Of a DNA stretch of 7,609 nucleotides, positions 1 through 7,609 are shown piece by piece (position 1 is the stretch's first letter; every line of letters begins with the position of its first letter). The translations under genes were made by a program, and so were the position numbers. The notes under the pieces are model-generated. The model searched no databases. It was not told the origin of the DNA and worked only from the letters and a program-made list of their open reading frames with translations. The stretch lies in the IMG/VR virus record IMGVR_UViG_2693429748_000010; one strand, given 5' to 3'. Origin of the DNA: a virus. Taxonomy: Duplodnaviria; Heunggongvirae; Uroviricota; Caudoviricetes.

Positions 1-437
1 GCCCATACCGGCGGCTTACCATCCGGATACTGGATCTTGTTTGTAAAAACCTCGCTTTCAATAAATTTTTTTCCGTGACAGCAGGGGCACTGTTTTTTGC
101 TCGCCGCGCTACGGGCATAATCTTCAAACGCATACGAAGCCATAATACGCATCACTGCCGGTTTTATTTCTGCCGGGAGTTTTCTTAACGCCGCCACGCG
201 ATCACACCGACTGAGTGCATATTCTGTCAGCAATTCTGTTGCCCGCTCTCTGTCATTCATACTAATGCCCATTTTCCCAAGGAACGCAGAAACCCCCATC
301 TCAGCCCGATTCTGTGTCATGCCCTGCGCGGCCATCACATCAGTGATACTCAGCGCATCTTTCGACGTTGAGGCCGATGCATCAGTCAGGCCGGGGGATT
401 TTGGGGAGTAGTATTTCGGTAAATCTTCCAGTTTCAT
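1..437 (-). CDS. Late-gene antiterminator Q, lambda/P22 gene-23 type; partial, C-terminus lies beyond window start
   Basis: ATG at 437..435 opens a minus-strand frame with no stop down to position 3. Manual translation MKLEDLPKYYSPKSPGLTDASASTSKDALSITDVMAAQGM...ASYAFEDYARSAASKKQCPCCHGKKF matches the N-terminal and Cys/His-region pattern I recall for lambda Q and P22 gp23. Start overlaps rusA stop (ATGA). Confidence 0.8.
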   Translation of the reverse strand, partial: MKLEDLPKYYSPKSPGLTDASASTSKDALSITDVMAAQGMTQNRAEMGVSAFLGKMGISMNDRERATELLTEYALSRCDRVAALRKLPAEIKPAVMRIMASYAFEDYARSAASKKQCPCCHGKKFIESEVFTNKIQYPDGKPPVW

Positions 438-814
438 TTTTTGACCTGCTCTTCATGCATTATGGGGTAAATCTTCACCCCCAGACGTCCACCAGATACT
501 GGCTGACCACGAACGATATTGATTTCATCAAACTGCTCATCGTCCATTAGCAACCCCGCATGCGTCAGCGCATCCAGCGGCGCTTTCAGAATATTGTCCA
601 GGTCACGGCGGCGCTTATCCGGTGGTTCTGCAATAATTTTTATTGCCAACCTTCCGGACAGGCTTAATTTCAGCCGCTGCTGGCGAACAATAAGCGCCAC
701 TGCCCGGCGATAACGCTCCCCGGCTTTTGATACAAAATATGTGCTGCCACGACGACGCCAGTAAGTGTTCACCGTCGGCGGGTAAGGTAAAACAAATTCT
801 ATGCGCTCGGTCAT
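434..814 (-). CDS. rusA: RusA-family Holliday junction resolvase
   Basis: 126 aa ORF starting at a true ATG (814). Contains the RusA acidic motif region DKRRRDLDNILKAPLDALTHAGLLMDDEQ and typical size. Stop TGA 436..434 overlaps the Q start; the upstream DUF968 stop TAA abuts its ATG. Confidence 0.85.
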   Translation of the reverse strand: MTERIEFVLPYPPTVNTYWRRRGSTYFVSKAGERYRRAVALIVRQQRLKLSLSGRLAIKIIAEPPDKRRRDLDNILKAPLDALTHAGLLMDDEQFDEINIVRGQPVSGGRLGVKIYPIMHEEQVKK

Positions 815-1873
815 TTATGCTTTCCACTTCAGAACACCCGAATTTCTCGCGTGCATTAAAAAACGAATCAGCAACAACAGCTGACTGCCGTGTTTCTCTT
901 CAAAATCTTTTACTCCGGCATGTAGTTCGTTACGGCATTTACGGCATAACGGAATAACAAACAAATCATCAGCCTTTGTTCCCATCCCTCCCAGTCCATG
1001 ACCAATGATGTGATGCGGATCATCTGCCTGATTGCCACACGTCATGCATTTCTGCGTTTTTACCCAGCGCGTGTATACAGGCATCTCTTCCCGTTGTGAT
1101 TTCTGGCGCTGGAGATACTGAGCCGGTGACTCCGGATCAACGGCAATGCTGACCACCGTCTTTTCCTGTGGTGGGTTCTGTTGCTGGTGGACGTGAGGCA
1201 GTAACGCAATATTTTTTGTGCGCTGCTTCAGTATGCTGGTGGCTGTCTGCTCTCCCGGTATGATGTCGCTTTCACTGTACACAGAGCGAATTTTTTCCGC
1301 ACGCAACCCCAGCGAACGACGTAATACCGCTTCCGGTAGCGCGTCCGCCACCTGATTGCGGACCGCCCACCAGGATAATTCAGCCAGAGATAATTCACGC
1401 TCCTGCGTACCGCTTATTGCGTGACCGATGACGTCAATCATCCATGCTGACAGGTTTTGATGAGCAAGTTGCTCGAGTGATTCGGATGTCTGGTCACGCA
1501 GCTGGTTGTCGCAGTGCCAGCACAACACCATTGCGCCGGTACCATAACGGTGAATGACGGTTTCGCTGTGATGATAATCGCCGTGTGGCCACTGGCAGGA
1601 TTTAATATGGCGCAACAGCCAGTCAGACAATGCACCAGCACCACCAGCAGCACGAATCACCCGTGCGTTACTGAAAAACGGCAGCAATGTTTTGTCTTCC
1701 ACCAGCGGCTGGCGAGCGGCAGGAACGACCCCGGACGGCAGATTACGCATGCTTTTTGGTTCCGGCTCCACCAGTATTCTGCCGTTATGGAATGCTGACA
1801 TTGATTCACGGCCTGGCTTAACGATAACCAGACCGAGTTCCGGTACCAGAACAGGTCGAAGTAATACCCGCAC
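815..1873 (-). CDS. DUF968-family prophage protein (YdfU-like) with C-terminal YbcO-like Cys/His zinc-ribbon domain
   Basis: 352 aa ORF. Track start at 1873 is GTG with GGAGG 4 nt upstream; the true start may be an internal ATG. C-terminal segment CMTCGNQADDPHHIIGHGLGGMGTKADDLFVIPLCRKCRNELH parallels the Cys/His pattern of the 96 aa YbcO-like ORF at 3441..3731. Position immediately upstream of rusA and Q is typical for nin-region nucleases. Confidence 0.65.
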   Translation of the reverse strand: MRVLLRPVLVPELGLVIVKPGRESMSAFHNGRILVEPEPKSMRNLPSGVVPAARQPLVEDKTLLPFFSNARVIRAAGGAGALSDWLLRHIKSCQWPHGDYHHSETVIHRYGTGAMVLCWHCDNQLRDQTSESLEQLAHQNLSAWMIDVIGHAISGTQERELSLAELSWWAVRNQVADALPEAVLRRSLGLRAEKIRSVYSESDIIPGEQTATSILKQRTKNIALLPHVHQQQNPPQEKTVVSIAVDPESPAQYLQRQKSQREEMPVYTRWVKTQKCMTCGNQADDPHHIIGHGLGGMGTKADDLFVIPLCRKCRNELHAGVKDFEEKHGSQLLLLIRFLMHARNSGVLKWKA

Positions 1874-1874
1874 A

Positions 1875-2153
1875 TTACCTCCAGATCCGTTGCTGGAATG
1901 TGCGGGACGGACGCGTTGGCCGTTCGGAGTAAGGGAGCCTGACGGAGATTATCCAGTGACGGTAGTCGAGGCTAAGGGCTTTTTTAACCTCGCATCCGCG
2001 CCTGCGGTAACACTGAATGAGCCATTCGGCCTGTTCTTCAGTGCATGGGGGATGCTGGTACCAATCAGATTTAAATGCGTGAGAGCGCCGCCCGTGCCTG
2101 CTGGCAAAGACGGCTGAATTATCAGAATTGTGTAGTCTGGAATTTTGCGCCAT
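1875..2153 (-). CDS. Hypothetical 92 aa ORF, possibly a decayed or truncated relative of the 200 aa gene at 3731..4330
   Basis: True ATG at 2153 preceded by the same GGAGAAAG Shine-Dalgarno and MA start as the 200 aa gene; sequence diverges after a few codons. Stop TAA 1877..1875 ends 1 nt before the DUF968 GTG. Arg-rich odd C-terminus; coding status uncertain. Confidence 0.3.
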   Translation of the reverse strand: MAQNSRLHNSDNSAVFASRHGRRSHAFKSDWYQHPPCTEEQAEWLIQCYRRRGCEVKKALSLDYRHWIISVRLPYSERPTRPSRTFQQRIWR

Positions 2154-2219
2154 CGGCTTTCTCCGGTGGCACAGTGTTACTCAACAGGGGTTCAGCCCTG
2201 CGCTGAATTGTAGATGAAT

Positions 2220-2480
2220 TCACTCATCTTCAAAAGCAGAAAAACCAGCCTTAATCCCAGCTTCTTTCAGAGACGGCAACGATGTGACAAATTCATTTGC
2301 ACGCGAAATAAAACCATCCGTCACAAGCCCATCCACAAAATGAATTAACGCAGCTCCACTCTTCCTTTGTTGAGACTGTAAACATTTAATACGGCAGTGG
2401 CTGACAATAGCGCCATTCTCAACGCGCACAGTATAGAGGCCATCTTCACTAAAAATTTCACGTAATTCTTCGATTTTCAT
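2220..2480 (-). CDS. Hypothetical 86 aa protein; paralog of 4369..4656; candidate Rem-like by position only
   Basis: ATG at 2480 (track start at 2483 is TTG). Sequence MKIEELREIFSEDGLYTVRVENGAIVSHCRIKCLQSQQRKSGA... is very similar to the 95 aa ORF over about 70 residues, then diverges through a 1-nt indel. Preceded by promoter-like element and a short coupled leader ORF. Confidence 0.5.
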   Translation of the reverse strand: MKIEELREIFSEDGLYTVRVENGAIVSHCRIKCLQSQQRKSGAALIHFVDGLVTDGFISRANEFVTSLPSLKEAGIKAGFSAFEDE

Positions 2481-2527
2481 CAACAGAATCCTTCCAGATA
2501 AATAGCACTCCCCTGTTCGGGGTCCAT
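2480..2527 (-). CDS. Candidate leader peptide, 15 aa (MDPEQGSAIYLEGFC), translationally coupled to the 86 aa gene
   Basis: ATG at 2527 preceded by purine-rich GGGAGAAGAGGG. Stop TGA overlaps the downstream ATG (TGATG). Nearly identical copy upstream of the paralogous 95 aa gene. Confidence 0.25.
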   Translation of the reverse strand: MDPEQGSAIYLEGFC

Positions 2528-2562
2528 CCCTCTTCTCCCTGCGCGCTACTTAAGTATTTTTG

Positions 2563-2592
2563 ATTCTATTCCGGCACCATCTAAAACTTCAA
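2563..2592 (-). promoter_or_regulatory. Candidate sigma70 promoter for the leader-peptide/86 aa transcript (TTGAAG-N18-TAGAAT)
   Basis: Minus-strand -35 TTGAAG (2592..2587) and -10 TAGAAT (2568..2563). Same hexamers with a different spacer recur upstream of the paralogous module (4738..4765) and again at 6089..6118. Confidence 0.35.
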
Positions 2593-2610
2593 ACGCGTTG
2601 AAAATAAAAA

Positions 2611-2630
2611 CAAAAACCCGCCGAAGCGNC
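2611..2630 (-). terminator. Rho-independent terminator whose 5' stem arm is formed by the tRNA 3' end
   Basis: Minus-strand RNA GCCGC-TTCG-GCGGG followed by TTTTTGTTTTTATTTTC, assuming N at 2629 is G. The intact version (CCCGC-TTCG-GCGGG-TTTTT) is at 6138..6156. Confidence 0.45.
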
Positions 2631-2700
2631 CCTTGCTGGACTTGAACCAGCGACCTGGCGATTATGAGTCGCTCGCTCTGACCAACTGAGCTAAAGGGCC
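2627..2700 (-). tRNA. tRNA with CAU anticodon, most likely tRNA-Ile2 (lysidine) type; no encoded CCA
   Basis: Manual fold of minus-strand GGCCCTT-TA-GCTC-AGTTGGTCA-GAGC-G-AGCGA-CTCATAA-TCGCC-AGGTC-GCTGG-TTCAAGT-CCAGC-AAGGG[N]C-G: 7 bp acceptor stem (needs N2629=G), 4 bp D stem, 5 bp T stem with TTCAAGT loop, anticodon loop CT-CAT-AA. Closely resembles E. coli ileX as I recall it. One A-C mismatch at the top of the anticodon stem. Confidence 0.75.
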
Positions 2701-2788
2701 GGAGGCAGAATAATAACCATATGTCATCACATCTGCAAACTCATCTGACCACCAGCACGTTTAACGTCCTGTGCCGTTTTTCAGGTAT

Positions 2789-2810
2789 AAAAAAACCCGC
2801 ATAAAGCGGG
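2789..2810 (-). terminator. Rho-independent terminator, candidate tR' of the Q82-like late region
   Basis: Minus-strand CCCGC-TTTAT-GCGGG followed by TTTTTTT, about 80 nt downstream of the Q-like stop. Confidence 0.55.
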
Positions 2811-2871
2811 CTCTTTCAAATGTCCATGTCTGCTATTCGCCTCGCGGTACAGCTTTGCGAAGCGTACAAGA

Positions 2872-2900
2872 ATTGAAGCAGTTTTTACGTCAAAAAGCAA
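2872..2900 (-). promoter_or_regulatory. Candidate late promoter (PR'-like) overlapping the 3' end of the Q-like gene
   Basis: Minus-strand TTGCTT (2900..2895), 17 nt spacer, TGc-TTCAAT extended -10 (2877..2872). Hexamer-level guess only; a TTGACG hexamer at 2893..2888 overlaps the Q stop codon. Confidence 0.25.
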
Positions 2901-3444
2901 TAACTTTTTTCTCTATACCAAAAGCCATAACCATTGGTTTGTACAAAATAAATTCTGCCACCTTTAGCCAATGCTCAATGCGTCTTTCACAGGTTCTTAA
3001 ACTCCATTTCGGGTGTGCATCATTCAGCAGTTCAGCCATTTTGCGTTTGGTCATCCCCCGCCCCTCATACCGTTGCCGAAGGACGCTAATCAATCCTGGA
3101 TGCTCTGCCAGCACCTCACTTATGACCCGATCAATACATAACGCCTCTGCATCAGTACAATGCGCCAGCCAGCTCTTTTGCTTACCGTTAATCATATCCC
3201 GCAAAAAAGCCTCAAGTTCAGACTTGTTCAGACCTGCTTTTTTCATCCTCCGGAGCGCCTCGTTAATTGCCGTTTTTGTCAGCTTTTTAGAGGTCAACAT
3301 CAGGTTAAACATATTCCCCGTCTTACCGCCACCAATATACGACCAGCGCCCCCACATACGTAGTTTTCCCTGAATCCAGACACTTTCCAGCGTGGTGAGA
3401 CGAAGGTGTTCTCCGCTTTTTCCTGTATTCGTTGGGTAAATCAT
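2890..3444 (-). CDS. Putative late antiterminator Q, phage 82-like family (family assignment uncertain)
   Basis: 184 aa from ATG 3444 (GGAGGG Shine-Dalgarno upstream); the track start at 3564 overlaps the upstream gene and is unlikely. Motifs LESVWIQGKLRMWGRW, RDMING, LRQRYEGRGMTKRKMAELL resemble what I recall of Q82-type antiterminators. Stop/start ATGA overlap with the YbcO-like gene; followed by terminator and tRNA as in Q-to-lysis regions. Confidence 0.5.
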   Translation of the reverse strand: MIYPTNTGKSGEHLRLTTLESVWIQGKLRMWGRWSYIGGGKTGNMFNLMLTSKKLTKTAINEALRRMKKAGLNKSELEAFLRDMINGKQKSWLAHCTDAEALCIDRVISEVLAEHPGLISVLRQRYEGRGMTKRKMAELLNDAHPKWSLRTCERRIEHWLKVAEFILYKPMVMAFGIEKKVIAF

Positions 3445-3731
3445 AAATATCCCTCCTTTCTCCAGATTTCTTGTGTGCGAAAAACACCTTCTGCATGCAT
3501 CAGGCGTAATTCTTCTTTGGTGTAATCGCTGGTTTTTACCCGCCCGTCGATTAAATCGTGGCACGAGCTACAGGCAATCGCTGCCTGCATATCGTGTGGC
3601 TTTATCGCTGTTCCGCACGTTCCCGCCAGTCGGTAATGCGCCAGCACAGACGTTTCCGGATCGTGATTGCAGTAGCCAGGAATTCTGACGGTGCACATCT
3701 GCCCCCGCGCCGCTTTACGTAAATCCACCAT
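3441..3731 (-). CDS. ybcO: YbcO-like (DUF1364) putative zinc-dependent nuclease
   Basis: 96 aa, true ATG at 3731. Cys/His pattern CTVRIPGYC...AHYRLAGTCGT...ACSSCHDLIDG; size and nin-region context match YbcO. Stop TGA overlaps the Q-like ATG; its own ATG overlaps the upstream stop (TAATG). Confidence 0.7.
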   Translation of the reverse strand: MVDLRKAARGQMCTVRIPGYCNHDPETSVLAHYRLAGTCGTAIKPHDMQAAIACSSCHDLIDGRVKTSDYTKEELRLMHAEGVFRTQEIWRKEGYL

Positions 3732-4330
3732 TACGCAAACTCCAGCAGCTGCGCGGCCACATTTTCGACTTGTTCCGGAGAGGAAAATTTACGGAACAGA
3801 ATCCAGTTCCACAGCACATTCAGAACAGATTTATAAACCTGCTGAAACTCGGTTTCGTCCATATTCGCAAACGCGATAGATTTCGCCCGACACCCACGGC
3901 TACCGTCCGGATAAAAATGCTCGGTGTAAAATCCAGCCTGAATGGTTACCCACTCGCGAAAAGCCTCAAACGACTTTAGCAATGCCGTATCACTGGTTCT
4001 GCGTGTCGCAACTGTATTCAGATATTGCTCTGCGGCTTCGCTCAGAGCTGGCGTATGTTCCCGGCCTACTGATTCACACAGGTAATCAACGAAACCGGAC
4101 ACCAGTTTTCGTTCGCGAGGCGTGATCGCCCCACCGACCGGAGTCCAGTAATCGAAACCCAGTTGCAGGAGTTTGAAAAAACGCTTGTGGAATGCGTAGT
4201 TACACACACGCTTAAAGTCTGCGTGTATCCACTCACCTATTTTGATTTGATGCAGAAAATCGCAACTCTCCGGCGTCGCCGGGAGAAGTAATCCGGAAGA
4301 GGTTTGTTTGACCAGTTGTATATGTGCCAT
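3731..4330 (-). CDS. Nin-region protein of unknown function, 199 aa
   Basis: ATG at 4330 preceded by GGAGAAAG at 6 nt spacing; the track start at 4372 lacks a ribosome-binding site. Long uninterrupted frame, coupled to ybcO-like gene. Family not recognised with confidence (possibly a DUF1367-like prophage protein). Confidence 0.6.
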   Translation of the reverse strand: MAHIQLVKQTSSGLLLPATPESCDFLHQIKIGEWIHADFKRVCNYAFHKRFFKLLQLGFDYWTPVGGAITPRERKLVSGFVDYLCESVGREHTPALSEAAEQYLNTVATRRTSDTALLKSFEAFREWVTIQAGFYTEHFYPDGSRGCRAKSIAFANMDETEFQQVYKSVLNVLWNWILFRKFSSPEQVENVAAQLLEFA

Positions 4331-4368
4331 CGGCTTTCTCCGGTGGCACGGTGTTACACAGCAGGAGT

Positions 4369-4656
4369 TCAATCCTGCTCAAGATTGTAGATGAGTTTAT
4401 TCTTCAGCAAAAGCAGAAAACCAGCCTTAAAACCAATCTCTTTCAAAACCCGTAATGATGTGACAAATTCGTCCTCACGCAAAATAAAACCGTCCGTCAG
4501 AAGTCCATTACAAAAATAAAATAACACAGCACCGCTCTTCCTTTGTTGAGATTGCAAACATCTAATGCGGCAATGGCTGACAATCGCTCCATTCTCAACG
4601 CGCACAGCATAGAGGCCATTTTCACTAAAAATTTCACGCAATTCTTCGATTTTCAT
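4369..4656 (-). CDS. Hypothetical 95 aa protein; paralog of 2220..2480
   Basis: True ATG at 4656. N-terminal ~70 aa nearly identical to the 86 aa paralog; C-terminus differs because of an indel-induced frame change. Confidence 0.5.
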   Translation of the reverse strand: MKIEELREIFSENGLYAVRVENGAIVSHCRIRCLQSQQRKSGAVLFYFCNGLLTDGFILREDEFVTSLRVLKEIGFKAGFLLLLKNKLIYNLEQD

Positions 4657-4658
4657 CT

Positions 4659-4703
4659 TCAGAATCCTTCCAGATAAATAGCTCTCCCCTGTTCGGGGTC
4701 CAT
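4659..4703 (-). CDS. Candidate leader peptide, 14 aa (MDPEQGRAIYLEGF)
   Basis: Same arrangement as 2480..2527; stop TGA lies 2 nt before the ATG of the 95 aa gene. Confidence 0.25.
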   Translation of the reverse strand: MDPEQGRAIYLEGF

Positions 4704-4737
4704 CCCTCTTCTCCCTGCGCGCTACTTAAGTGAGTCG

Positions 4738-4765
4738 ATTCTATCTGCGAAGGTGCGCGAATCAA
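4738..4765 (-). promoter_or_regulatory. Candidate sigma70 promoter (TTGATT-N16-TAGAAT) for the leader-peptide/95 aa transcript
   Basis: Minus-strand -35 at 4765..4760 and -10 at 4743..4738; hexamers conserved with the 2563..2592 copy while the spacer diverged. Confidence 0.35.
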
Positions 4766-4785
4766 ATTCACCGGAAATAAACAAC

Positions 4786-4828
4786 AAAAAACCCGCCGAA
4801 ACGCTGAGAGATCACAGCGATGGGCGGG
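4786..4828 (-). terminator. Structured 3' end and rho-independent terminator of hok locus B
   Basis: Minus-strand CCCGCC ... GGCGGG enclosing an inner hairpin CGCTG-9 nt-CAGCG, followed by TTTTTT. Confidence 0.5.
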
Positions 4829-4905
4829 TTAAGTGCGGGTGCGTTGAGGATGCCTGACACATCAGAGGTGGGCGGGGATGGGATCAGCTCCCCGCCCGGT
4901 CACTC

Positions 4906-5061
4906 TTACTTCCTGGATTCGTAGTCTACGAAGACAGCGACCTCCGTCTGGCCGGTTCGGATTCGTACCTCACAGAGGTCTTTCCTCGTTACCAGTGCCG
5001 TCACTATGACGGTTAAACAGATGACGATCAGGGCGATTAACATCGCCTTTTGCTGCTTCAT
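4906..5061 (-). CDS. hok: Hok-family type I toxin (51 aa) with variant C-terminus
   Basis: MKQQKAMLIALIVICLTVIVTALVTRKDLCEVRIRTGQTEVAVFVDYESRK: first 44 residues identical to E. coli HokD as I recall it, last 7 differ. AAGGAGAAG Shine-Dalgarno 6 nt upstream of a true ATG. Track ORF is an in-frame upstream extension. Confidence 0.75.
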   Translation of the reverse strand: MKQQKAMLIALIVICLTVIVTALVTRKDLCEVRIRTGQTEVAVFVDYESRK

Positions 5062-5118
5062 AGCCTGCTTCTCCTTGCCTTTCGGCATGTAAGAGGCTAA
5101 CCTACATGTGCAAAGCAT

Positions 5119-5283
5119 GAAATTGGCCTCAGATTAATGTTAAGCGTCTTGCCGGACGCGTAATGTTAACTGGGGCTTTTCTCTATCTGCCTTTTGGTGT
5201 TCATGCCTGAAGCAGATAGCCTCAAGCACCCGCAGTCATTCTACTTACCTCGCCAATATGAAATCAATCAGAAAGGTGCCCCA
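5119..5283. repeat. hok leader/promoter repeat, copy B
   Basis: Near-identical to 6445..6604; partial diverged copy at 6626..6748. Confidence 0.8.
5238..5267 (-). promoter_or_regulatory. Candidate promoter of hok locus B (TTGATT-N18-TAGAAT)
   Basis: Minus-strand -35 at 5267..5262 and -10 at 5243..5238, about 170 nt upstream of hok; identical element at 6559..6588. Confidence 0.4.
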
Positions 5284-5288
5284 TAAAA

Positions 5289-5975
5289 TCACTCCTTCTC
5301 TTCTTTACCGTAGTGGAGTTGACCAATTTTGATAAGAGGGCGTCCCTGAGATTTGCGGTGTAGATTGGTATCGCGCAGAGAATACACACAGCCACAATAT
5401 TCCTGCTGATAGAATTTTTCGCGCTTGCTGATTTCAATCATACGGGACGAGCCGCCCTGCTTGCGCCAGTTATAATCCCAGTACACCATGCCCGGATAAT
5501 GCGCGACGGCTCGCCGCCCACAGTCGTTAACCTGCTGCATATTTTTCCAGCGTGAAATGCCCAGTGAACTGCTGATCACACTGAAACCATTTTCAGCGGC
5601 GTACAGCGCTGTCCGCTCAAAACGCATGTCAAAACACATGGTGCAACGGATCCCTCGTTCGGGCTCCCATTCCATTCCTTTGGCTCGTTCAAACCAGTTG
5701 TCTGTGTCGTAATCAGCATCAATAAACGGCACGCCGTGTTGTTCAGCAAAGCGAATATTCTCATCCTTACGAATTAAATACTCTTTCTGAGGATGAATGT
5801 TCGGGTTGTAGAAAAAGATGGTGTAGTCGATTCCCGAGGCCTGAAGCGCCTCCATCACCTCACCGGAACATGGAGCACAGCAAGAGTGCAGTAGTAGTTT
5901 GTTTGCCCCGTTTGGGAGCTCCAATTTGGGCCGTTTGAAATCAGCAACTGTCATAAATATGTTTATTGGGGTCAT
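5289..5975 (-). CDS. queH: QueH-like (DUF208) putative epoxyqueuosine reductase
   Basis: 228 aa with [10 protein letters not shown] near the N-terminus plus [18 protein letters not shown] and [11 protein letters not shown], which match the conserved Cys-containing motifs I associate with DUF208/QueH. No clear Shine-Dalgarno at either candidate ATG (5975 or 5954). Confidence 0.55.
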
Positions 5976-6034
5976 AAAAATATCAAAGAGTGTAGCATTA
6001 GAACGGGGCTATCGGAAACAGATGTGTGACTGCT

Positions 6035-6082
6035 CCCCGCCCGGTCACTCTTACTTCCTGGATTCGTAGTCTACGAAGACAG
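6035..6082 (-). pseudogene. 3' fragment of a hok-B-type gene (last ~9 codons, stop and start of 3' UTR)
   Basis: Matches 4887..4934 of locus B almost exactly; bounded by N at 6083 on one side and divergent sequence leading to the QueH-like gene on the other. Confidence 0.5.
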
Positions 6083-6137
6083 NTTTTGATTCTATTCCGG
6101 CACCATCTAAAACTTCAAACGCGTTGAAAATAAAAAC

Positions 6138-6156
6138 AAAAACCCGCCGAAGCGGG
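6138..6156 (-). terminator. Rho-independent terminator of hok locus C
   Basis: Minus-strand CCCGC-TTCG-GCGGG followed by TTTTTGTTTTTATTTTC. Confidence 0.6.
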
Positions 6157-6226
6157 TTAAGTGTGGGTGCATTGAGGATGCCTGACCCATCAGAGGTGGC
6201 GAGGGATTTCTCCCCCGCCTGGTCTC

Positions 6227-6382
6227 TTACTCCTCAGGTTCGTAAGCTGTGAAGACAGCGACCTCCGTCTGGCCGGTTCGAATTCGTACCTCGCAGAGGT
6301 CTTTCCTCGTTACCAGTGCCGTCACTATGACGGTTAAACAGATGACGATCAGGGCGATTAACATCGCCTTTTGCTGCTTCAT
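6227..6382 (-). CDS. hokD: Hok-family type I toxin, HokD-like (51 aa)
   Basis: MKQQKAMLIALIVICLTVIVTALVTRKDLCEVRIRTGQTEVAVFTAYEPEE matches E. coli HokD (RelF) as I recall it. Same Shine-Dalgarno and leader as locus B. Confidence 0.8.
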   Translation of the reverse strand: MKQQKAMLIALIVICLTVIVTALVTRKDLCEVRIRTGQTEVAVFTAYEPEE

Positions 6383-6444
6383 AGCCTGCTTCTCCTTGCC
6401 TTTCGGCACGTAAGAGGCTAACCTAGATTTGCCGTTCATAGATT

Positions 6445-6604
6445 GAGCCTCAGATTAATGTTAAGCGTCTTGCCGGACGCGTAATGTTAACTGGGGCTTT
6501 TCTCTATCTGCCTTTTGGTGTTCATGCCTGAAGCAGATAGCCTCAAGCACCCGCAGTCATTCTACTTACCTCGCCAATATGAAATCAATCAGAAAGGTGC
6601 CCCA
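6445..6604. repeat. hok leader/promoter repeat, copy C
   Basis: Near-identical to 5119..5283. Confidence 0.8.
6559..6588 (-). promoter_or_regulatory. Candidate promoter of hok locus C (TTGATT-N18-TAGAAT)
   Basis: Identical to the locus B promoter element. Confidence 0.4.
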
Positions 6605-6625
6605 NNNNNNNNNNNNNNNNNNNNN
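6605..6625. other. Assembly gap (21 N) inside the hok-leader repeat array
   Basis: Run of N flanked on both sides by copies of the same hok leader sequence. Confidence 0.95.
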
Positions 6626-6748
6626 GAAATTGGCCTCAGATTAATGTTAAGCGTCTTGCCGGACGCGTAATGTTAACTGGGGCTTTTCTCTATCTGCCTT
6701 TTGGTGTTCATGCCTGAGACAGATAGCCTCAAGCACCCGCTGCAATTC
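6626..6748. repeat. hok leader repeat, third diverged partial copy with different -35 region
   Basis: Matches the leader through the TAGAAT -10, then diverges (TTGCGG-N16-TAGAAT instead of TTGATT-N18-TAGAAT). Several point differences, so not a simple assembly duplicate. Confidence 0.6.
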
Positions 6749-6779
6749 TACTTAACTCTCCTTTTCCCGCAAACCGTTT

Positions 6780-6863
6780 TTATCCCCAGCGGCAAATCGA
6801 ATACACCACCAGCGCCACCGCCATCGCAATTCCTACCGTTGTTAATGCTTCAGGCCAGGTCAT
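6780..6863 (-). CDS. Candidate 27 aa hydrophobic peptide ([27 protein letters not shown])
   Basis: True ATG at 6863 overlapping the stop of the 114 aa gene (ATGA). One predicted membrane span with a basic C-terminal end. Too short to be in the ORF track. GGAGG lies about 10 nt upstream. Confidence 0.3.
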
Positions 6864-7204
6864 CGTAAAATATCCTCCACGCTTATCAGTCCGTTCCGCT
6901 CCAGATAACTCATCGCCTTATCCGGTAATTTGCAGTCTGGCTTCGCTTTTCTCAGTTGCCAGGTTAACTGCTTTACCAGCATGGTTAACTCATCGACCAG
7001 ACGCTGATATCCCACTGGTTTGTATTCATGCAATTTACCGGCTGGCTCTGCTGCCAGCGATACCAGTGCGATTTCCAGAACAGCAATATCCATCTTATAT
7101 GTGCGGATGATGTCATGGTCGATTGTGCCCGGTATGCACAGTCTCTGTGCTTCAATAGTCTCCTCTGCGTGAGCTATTAACTGCTCTCTGGTAAAAGTCG
7201 TCAT
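6860..7204 (-). CDS. Hypothetical 114 aa protein
   Basis: True ATG at 7204 overlapping the stop of the upstream 55 aa ORF (ATGA). Shares MTTxT(K/R)E start and an A-L-x-S-L-x-A-E-P motif with that ORF. Confidence 0.55.
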
Positions 7205-7368
7205 GCCGTAGCCCCTTCTTGATATTTTTCAAACCAGAACACAACCGGCTCTGCTTCCAGCGATGCCAGCGCAATCCGTGCCAGTTCCATTTGTTCACCA
7301 CGGGTAAGCCCGTTTTCAAGCGGGTTTTTAATGAACAATTCAATACGTTCTTTGGTAATAGTGGTCAT
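7201..7368 (-). CDS. Hypothetical 55 aa protein ([55 protein letters not shown])
   Basis: Manual translation. AAGGAG Shine-Dalgarno 6 nt upstream of ATG 7368. Not in ORF track because under 60 aa. Coupled to the 114 aa gene. Confidence 0.4.
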
Positions 7369-7378
7369 GTGTTACTCC

Positions 7379-7609
7379 TTAACCCGCAGTGCTTTCAACT
7401 GATGAGGGGAACAAAATCTTTTCATCAAACCCTGCATTCATATCATGAACAGCAACACACCAATCCATCGACGAACGATTATCAAGAGCCTCCATGATTT
7501 CATCCATGCGGCGTAGGTCATACAGGTAAATGCTTTTATCGCCAATGGTGTAAAAGCCAATTTTTTTCGGTGATGGATGAGGTGTACTGGCAATAGCGGA
7601 CACTACCAT
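7379..7609 (-). CDS. Hypothetical protein, probably partial (N-terminus may lie beyond window end)
   Basis: Open frame to the window edge, stop TAA at 7381..7379, 10 nt upstream of the 55 aa start. The ATG at 7609 may or may not be the true start. Confidence 0.4.
   Translation of the reverse strand: MVVSAIASTPHPSPKKIGFYTIGDKSIYLYDLRRMDEIMEALDNRSSMDWCVAVHDMNAGFDEKILFPSSVESTAG

Follow-up and report, generated by a model that had tools for sequence, protein, structure and literature searches.

The DNA analysed here, hereafter the window, is the 7,609-nt viral record IMGVR_UViG_2693429748_000010 of IMG/VR. Its minus strand carries a gene for a QueH-type protein (queH), with one hok/sok locus (locus B) immediately downstream and a second (locus A) upstream, on the far side of an ambiguous base (Table 1). 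The genes around queH in E. coli, Shigella and E. albertii are phage genes, encoding cI/Cro-like regulators, replication functions, and NinB-like, HNH and Q-like proteins, beyond which lie tRNAs and then the lysis genes. The position is that of the nin region of lambdoid prophages and of the isolated phage HannyBb, between the replication genes and the Q antiterminator, and queH is oriented in the same direction as the flanking early genes.

Table 1. Features of the queH region and of the tRNA in the window
Feature	Position	Strand	Remarks
queH coding sequence, likely start	5289..5954	-	221 aa + stop; PGAP form WP_012421537.1
Longest queH ORF	5289..5975	-	228 aa; ATG at 5975
Candidate extended -10 element, TGcTACACT (TGCTACACT)	5997..5989	-	TG 5997-5996, hexamer 5994-5989; ~33 nt before start
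Upstream segment travelling with queH	5976..6042	-	shared by all 84 related loci; upstream boundary of the module
51-bp copy of the hok B 3' end (4887..4937), with GGGCGGGGAGC at its end	6032..6082	-	self-BLAST 100%
Ambiguous base N at homology breakpoint, possible contig join	6083	.	6084 is the first matched base in complete E. coli genomes
hok/sok locus B, directly downstream of queH	4781..5288	-	Rfam sok 5056..5231, mok 4906..5118, hok 4906..5061
Locus B promoter-like site	5267->5238	-	promoter scan
Locus B terminator-like hairpin with T-run	about 4830..4781	-	
hok/sok locus A	6084..6604	-	Rfam sok 6377..6552, mok 6227..6439, hok 6227..6382
Locus A terminator	6158..6141	-	
Locus A promoter-like site, TTGAAG-18-TAGAAT	6118->6089	-	
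tRNA, anticodon CAT (Ile2 type), interrupted by N at 2629	2626..2700	-	ARAGORN, Rfam; outside the queH unit

The initial annotation placed the 228-aa ORF in the DUF208/QueH family and proposed a profile search as the check. That search returns a match far beyond chance to Pfam PF02677 (QueH), with an E-value of 1.9e-65 and a score of 220.6 bits (cut-off 23.5) over positions 1-174 of the 175-position profile, and the ORF also matches T. maritima QueH (7lc5) at 5e-22. The motifs HSCCAPC, RCTMC and YCGC (YCGCVYS) are present, and contain all seven cysteines conserved in the family. Numbered with M8 as residue 1, these are Cys25, 26, 29, 104, 107, 187 and 189, which are invariant across 28 homologues and align with C9, C10, D13, the CxxC pair and the CGC pair of T. 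maritima QueH. Asp13 of the T. maritima enzyme (mutated in PDB 9DCO) thus aligns with a cysteine in the prophage protein, and cysteine is the majority state of the family: among 113 diverse cluster representatives, 109 have CCxPC and three have CCxPD.

An AlphaFold (AF2) model with 28 homologues as input is of moderate quality only (pLDDT 71.3, pTM 0.72). Its best PDB matches are the five T. maritima QueH entries (TM 0.77-0.80, E ~1e-9), followed by distant adenine-nucleotide alpha-hydrolase-type enzymes. T. maritima QueH (PDB 7LC5/7LC7; DUF208, PF02677/IPR003828) shares with the prophage protein the same full-length profile, the fold, and the HxCCxP, RCxxC and YCGC motifs, whereas identity is only ~30%, and the prophage protein is phage-borne and carries an extension of ~20 residues at each of its N- and C-termini. 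By profile, motifs and modelled fold, the product of 5289..5975 is a real QueH, and an ordinary member of a characterised and already annotated family. Although no NCBIfam model matches the protein at E <= 0.01, PGAP names it QueH, and the name evidently derives from another type of evidence. In PHROGs, the family is phrog_3217, listed as 'unknown function', with a profile whose first position corresponds only to residue 34; it would thus appear that many annotations of phages use an internal Met, dropping the CCAPC motif.

Two ATG codons come into consideration as the start of queH. Homologues of other genera start at the second (5954, the M8 equivalent), whereas the nearest relatives outside Escherichia have ATT, or nothing equivalent, in place of the first (5975). 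The start used by homologues and by PGAP alike, the ATG at 5954, is therefore probably the true one. No recognisable Shine-Dalgarno sequence lies upstream of the 5975 ATG (...CACTCTTTGATATTTTT) or of the 5954 ATG (...CCCCAATAAACATATTT), in keeping with the earlier remark that the gene has no obvious ribosome-binding site; neither codon is preceded by a purine-rich stretch of this kind. The same is true of the nearest chromosomal queH relatives, whereas more distant ones (Serratia, Erwinia amylovora) have GAGG or GGAG. The predicted 5' leader is AU-rich, and no structure was found in it (z = -0.08).

Upstream of the leader, a GCTACnnT sequence lies 31-35 nt before the queH start in 84 of 84 Escherichia and viral loci. 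The sequence recurs at that distance in the 13 nearest chromosomal homologue loci (16 entries when three metagenome copies of one Erwinia locus are counted), where the DNA further upstream is unrelated, and more distant clades have TACACT, TACAAT or TATATT at similar distances. A generic consensus promoter scan made no call at 5997..5989, the element having been missed because of its weak -35 (3/6). The simplest reading of this conservation is that the -10-like element represents a sigma-70 extended -10 promoter that was captured together with queH, in which case transcription would start near 5983-5981.

That the element is common to prophage and chromosomal queH argues for a promoter of the gene's own, rather than for expression by read-through from 6089..6118, as the initial annotation had suggested. 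The TTGAAG-18-TAGAAT site is present there as a pattern in the promoter scan. However, the N at 6083 stands between this site and queH, none of the 84 other queH loci has the site, and it lies inside a 71-bp repeat whose second copy, at 2558..2628, stands upstream of a different gene, of 87 aa, at 2220..2483. A similar promoter-like site (4765->4738) precedes a paralogous 95-aa gene after hok B. Promoter-like sites of this type thus precede the gene that follows hok, and the site at 6089..6118 is expected to serve such a gene and not queH; read-through from it is unlikely, and the site was rejected as the queH promoter.

At the other end of the gene, the terminator scan found nothing in the stretch from the queH stop (5289) to the promoter-like site of hok (5267). 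With no terminator and only 22 nt between the two, queH transcripts probably enter hok/sok. Within 5238..5291, such transcripts should reach the hok/mok leader, where they would meet antisense sok transcription.

Both hok/sok loci are genuine by the features of the family: each has a ~50-aa Hok ORF, an overlapping mok and a hok leader/sok element, and they score 117 and 112 bits against Rfam RF01794 (gathering score 59). PGAP names the copy in the FDAARGOS_944 prophage (L001) HokD. A third, partial copy of the hok/sok leader (6626..6761; Rfam match 6558..6738) breaks off at the N run, immediately short of the mok start codon, and represents a truncated locus or else the end of a contig.

The two loci differ in their relation to queH. 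A hok/sok leader directly follows queH in 84 of 84 loci, with the same junction, which identifies queH-hok as a constant unit whose upstream boundary lies near 6025-6042: homology upstream of queH stops at 6042 in the comparison with FDAARGOS_944, and at 6025 in that with HannyBb. An upstream hok is found at none of the 84 other loci, only in this window. The description of queH as lying between two hok loci is therefore borne out on the downstream side; on the upstream side it is correct as to the ORFs and the Rfam sok element, which are present on both flanks as given, but the upstream locus stands across the breakpoint at N 6083, and its place there is doubtful.

It seems somewhat more probable than the alternative that this two-hok arrangement is an artefact of assembly or scaffolding, and not a biological arrangement. 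The Ns of the window (2629, 6083 and 6605-6625) each fall exactly on a homology breakpoint between two prophage types, and exact repeats lie near them, one of 71 bp (2558..2628 = 6084..6154) and one of 51 bp (4887..4937 = 6032..6082). The segments on either side of the breakpoints have different affinities. The pieces 1..2628, 6084..6604 and 6626..7609 are colinear in TUM10008, where the corresponding genes lie in one contiguous prophage, and in HannyBb, which matches 860..2628, 6084..6599 and 6626..6757; the intervening 2630..6082 is 99.8% like a different prophage, that of FDAARGOS_944, the identity being measured over 2630..6042. None of the 5426 complete E. coli genomes spans 6083, and none covers more than 59% of the window. 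Judging from these breakpoints, the window thus has the appearance of four contigs strung together by Ns rather than of a continuous stretch, so that the adjacency of hok A and queH is unproven, and locus A is probably part of another contig or prophage than the one that carries queH.

Two points weigh the other way. The Ns might be masking that was put in after assembly, and a 51-bp fragment of the hok 3' end (6032..6082) is contiguous with queH on its upstream side, showing that some hok sequence does precede the gene here. This fragment is the only hok sequence contiguous with queH upstream, and it is absent from the 84 other loci. The 11-bp sequence GGGCGGGGAGC (6032..6042 and 4887..4897) has one occurrence in the hok 3' untranslated stem and, at loci of ordinary arrangement (L008), another immediately ahead of queH. 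A tandem duplication of the 1,145-bp queH-hok unit, mediated by this microhomology, possibly explains the 51-bp fragment.

Outside the window, queH is found at a nucleotide identity of at least 90% in 995 of 5426 complete E. coli genomes (~18%), where it is annotated as 'epoxyqueuosine reductase QueH', and the exact protein is present on at least 1000 contigs. Carriers include Shigella sonnei, EAEC 042 and APEC O1, and the Shigella sonnei Ss046 deposit of the 228-aa form describes it as a conserved hypothetical protein. The queG gene of K-12, by comparison, is found in all 5426 complete genomes, so that queH is always a second, B12-independent epoxyqueuosine reductase. These counts bear out the earlier view that E. 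coli uses the unrelated QueG for this step and that a QueH-type gene is accessory. QueG (E. coli YjeS; cobalamin + [4Fe-4S]) and QueH have the same predicted reaction (EC 1.17.99.6) and occur in the same cells, but are unrelated in family and fold; the one is core, the other accessory.

The prophage-borne nature of queH is likewise upheld, by its phage-gene neighbours, by HannyBb and by the IMG/VR contigs. Escherichia phage HannyBb (45 kb) has queH at the same position, annotated as hypothetical, and 188 viral contigs of IMG/VR match the gene. Searched with tblastn, 50,697 phage records yielded only 25 matches, which, apart from HannyBb, are unannotated faecal metagenome fragments or very large records (282-379 kb). 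The latter may be bacterial DNA. For instance, homologues of QueH occur in 'Acinetobacter phage MD-2021a' (328-379 kb) and in 'Staphylococcus phage SA 1306 Kay' (283 kb), records whose size and missing annotation suggest bacterial chromosome and not phage DNA. Hutinet et al. (2019) reported no QueA, QueG or QueH homologues in the viruses that they analysed (PMC6884629), and a full-text search of literature other than the primary QueH papers (Zallot 2017, Li 2021) found nothing on a QueH of E. coli or Shigella phages or prophages, nor on what such a gene would offer a host in which QueG is always present. While the name QueH is already given to the gene in RefSeq, the fact that lambdoid phages carry it alongside a universal QueG is, as far as searched, apparently undescribed.

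The closest relatives outside Escherichia are the chromosomal queH genes of other Enterobacterales, whose products have the same length and are 78-92% identical in amino acid sequence. Identity to the prophage protein is 86-92% for Enterobacter, 91% for Scandinavium and Kluyvera, and 85-86% for Erwinia, with Serratia, Pectobacterium, Rahnella and Proteus/Providencia also falling within the 78-92% range. Besides length, the nearest of these genes share with the prophage copy the GCTACnnT -10-like element and the lack of a Shine-Dalgarno sequence. Their setting is different: the chromosomal genes occupy stable, genus-specific neighbourhoods, with synteny conserved within each genus (for instance, purL-queH-glrK in an Erwinia species), whereas the Escherichia and Shigella copies lie in lambdoid prophages, fused to hok/sok. 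The dS to the nearest chromosomal relatives is near or beyond saturation (0.9-1.6 where estimable), which indicates that the capture is not recent.

Lambdoid morons, such as lambda bor and lom, are accessory genes with a promoter of their own inserted between phage genes. Like these, queH is host-derived and accessory, has a candidate promoter of its own, and is absent from sibling prophages; in the TUM10008 prophage, hok is present without queH, showing presence and absence at the same position. Unlike them, queH has no terminator of its own between 5289 and 5267, and runs straight into hok/sok.

The best explanation of these features, and one that we regard as probable while allowing appreciable doubt, is that the gene encodes a functional QueH, captured with its native promoter, which gives the lysogen a B12-independent way to complete queuosine. 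QueH would act as an iron-sulfur, cobalamin-independent epoxyqueuosine reductase, converting oQ34 to Q34 in tRNA-Asn, -Asp, -His and -Tyr. A lineage of lambdoid phages would have taken a chromosomal queH, along with its native sigma-70 promoter, from another Enterobacterales species, and the captured gene would have become fused to hok/sok at its present place in the nin region. There, queH would be transcribed from its own extended -10 promoter (TGCTACACT, 5997..5989) and, in lytic growth, also as part of the early-right transcript of the phage. Translation would begin at the 5954 ATG on a short, AU-rich and unstructured leader that lacks a Shine-Dalgarno sequence. Activity in E. coli, use of the promoter, expression in the lysogen and a benefit when B12 is scarce are all points that we infer from the sequence.

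The presumed gain to the lysogen follows from the requirements of the resident enzyme. E. coli has no de novo synthesis of cobalamin (B12). QueG needs cobalamin, according to a statement in PMC4646009 that cites Frey et al. (1988), and a prophage queH would thus offer the lysogen a B12-independent route to finished queuosine. Several points weigh against this explanation. The missing Shine-Dalgarno sequence could mean low translation, and without a terminator before hok the gene is not a clean autonomous unit. Enteric E. coli imports corrinoids, and a cobalamin shortage that limits QueG may therefore be rare in the gut; moreover, we know of no growth phenotype that distinguishes oQ from Q. The weak -35 of the proposed promoter, the lack of an NAU codon excess in the prophage genes (0.54 against 0.65 in six flanking host genes) and the lack of an NCBIfam match count against it as well.

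A tRNA in the same window had been taken as further support for the tuning of host translation through queuosine. However, the tRNA at 2626..2700 is of the Ile2 type, for AUA codons, and annotated as tRNA-Ile by PGAP in the 99.8%-identical copy of FDAARGOS_944 (L001). With the anticodon CAT it is outside the Asn, Asp, His and Tyr substrates of queuosine modification, and the proposed link was rejected. In FDAARGOS_944 (L001 17102..17412), this tRNA is the first of four (Ile, Arg, Thr, Gly), whereas the array in the window is cut after the N at 2629.

Alternatively, queH may be an auxiliary gene of the lytic cycle, expressed mainly from the PR transcript to bring about a rapid rise of Q34 for translation of phage genes, and silent or irrelevant in the lysogen. 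The position of queH between the replication genes and Q, in the orientation of the early genes, would suit such a role, as would the finding that infection of Shewanella by phage induces queG, with oQ going down and Q going up (bioRxiv 10.64898/2026.03.05.709803), which indicates that the step from oQ to Q is dynamic during infection. Yet the gene has its own -10-like element, conserved with its chromosomal relatives, and tRNA turnover within a lytic cycle of ~1 h leaves little time for a benefit. Nor does codon usage point to a special phage demand for Q, a notion that was rejected: the fraction of NAU codons is 0.54 in the late and in the early genes of the prophage, as against 0.65 in six flanking host genes. 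A mainly lytic function is thus unlikely, while a lytic contribution is compatible with the preferred explanation of a B12-independent route in the lysogen.

Whether queH is under selection at all can be judged from its alleles. It might be a hitch-hiker without a selected function, kept only because it is fused to an addictive hok/sok that recombines among lambdoid phages; the invariable junction with hok/sok would be consistent with this, as would the absence of a Shine-Dalgarno sequence and the full redundancy of queH with queG. Against it, the ORF is intact in 84 of 84 Escherichia, Shigella and IMG/VR loci, all of the metal-ligand residues are kept, and 20 alleles have a mean pairwise dS of 0.10 and dN of 0.003 (dN/dS ~0.03), a ratio that would be unexpected for a neutral passenger at that divergence. 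Similar values, of 0.025-0.054, are obtained against those homologues for which dS can be estimated. The intact copies and low dN/dS argue strongly, on evolutionary grounds, against a decaying passenger, and hitch-hiking appears very improbable.

It is scarcely credible that QueH has been re-purposed, for 7-deazaguanine in phage DNA or for phage-host conflict (for instance, over tRNAs targeted by anticodon nucleases): phages do use the preQ0 pathway for DNA modification (PMC6884629) and the lambdoid nin region gathers accessory genes, but the protein shares 78-92% identity and the same constraint with housekeeping chromosomal QueH, annotation of the ~32-kb FDAARGOS_944 prophage and of 16.7 kb of HannyBb shows neither DpdA/TGT-like nor preQ0-synthesis genes, and no PADLOC defence model matched QueH or five neighbouring proteins. 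A role in DNA modification and membership in a defence system were both rejected on these results. The 7-deazaguanine clusters of phages (DpdA with FolE/QueD/QueE/QueC; PMC6884629) resemble the present case in that genes of the queuosine/7-deazaguanine pathway are carried by a phage. They differ in that those clusters modify phage DNA and include DpdA, whereas prophage queH is a lone, late-pathway enzyme specific to tRNA.

If the preferred explanation of a functional, B12-independent QueH is correct, ~18% of sequenced E. coli would have a route to queuosine that is missing in K-12, which would bear on how far results on tRNA modification and codon decoding in K-12 can be generalised. To our knowledge, few enzymes acting on the modification of host tRNA are encoded by phages. 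It may be suggested, tentatively and with rather more doubt than assurance, that lambdoid prophages bring about a lysogenic conversion of the tRNA epitranscriptome, in which QueH made from a captured host promoter renders the balance of Q and oQ strain-dependent and phage-determined, and about one-fifth of E. coli/Shigella strains complete queuosine without B12. Prophage queH would then represent a simple, testable case of lysogenic conversion acting on translation. In addition, the fusion of queH to hok/sok without an intervening terminator might couple transcription of queH to toxin-antitoxin control.

Two further arrangements were observed among the neighbouring genes. The 87-aa gene (2220..2483) and its 95-aa paralogue (4369..4656), both on the minus strand, are 85.6% identical in nucleotide sequence and belong to phrog_340, of unknown function. 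Each follows a hok terminator and a TAGAAT promoter-like site, so that hok, promoter and small gene appear to form a recurring module. In its longest form, the ORF of the Q-like antiterminator shares 124 nt with the HNH/DUF1364 gene (2890..3564 and 3441..3731, minus strand). The shorter start used by PGAP, equivalent to 3444, removes this overlap, and the start of the long ORF is thus probably unused.
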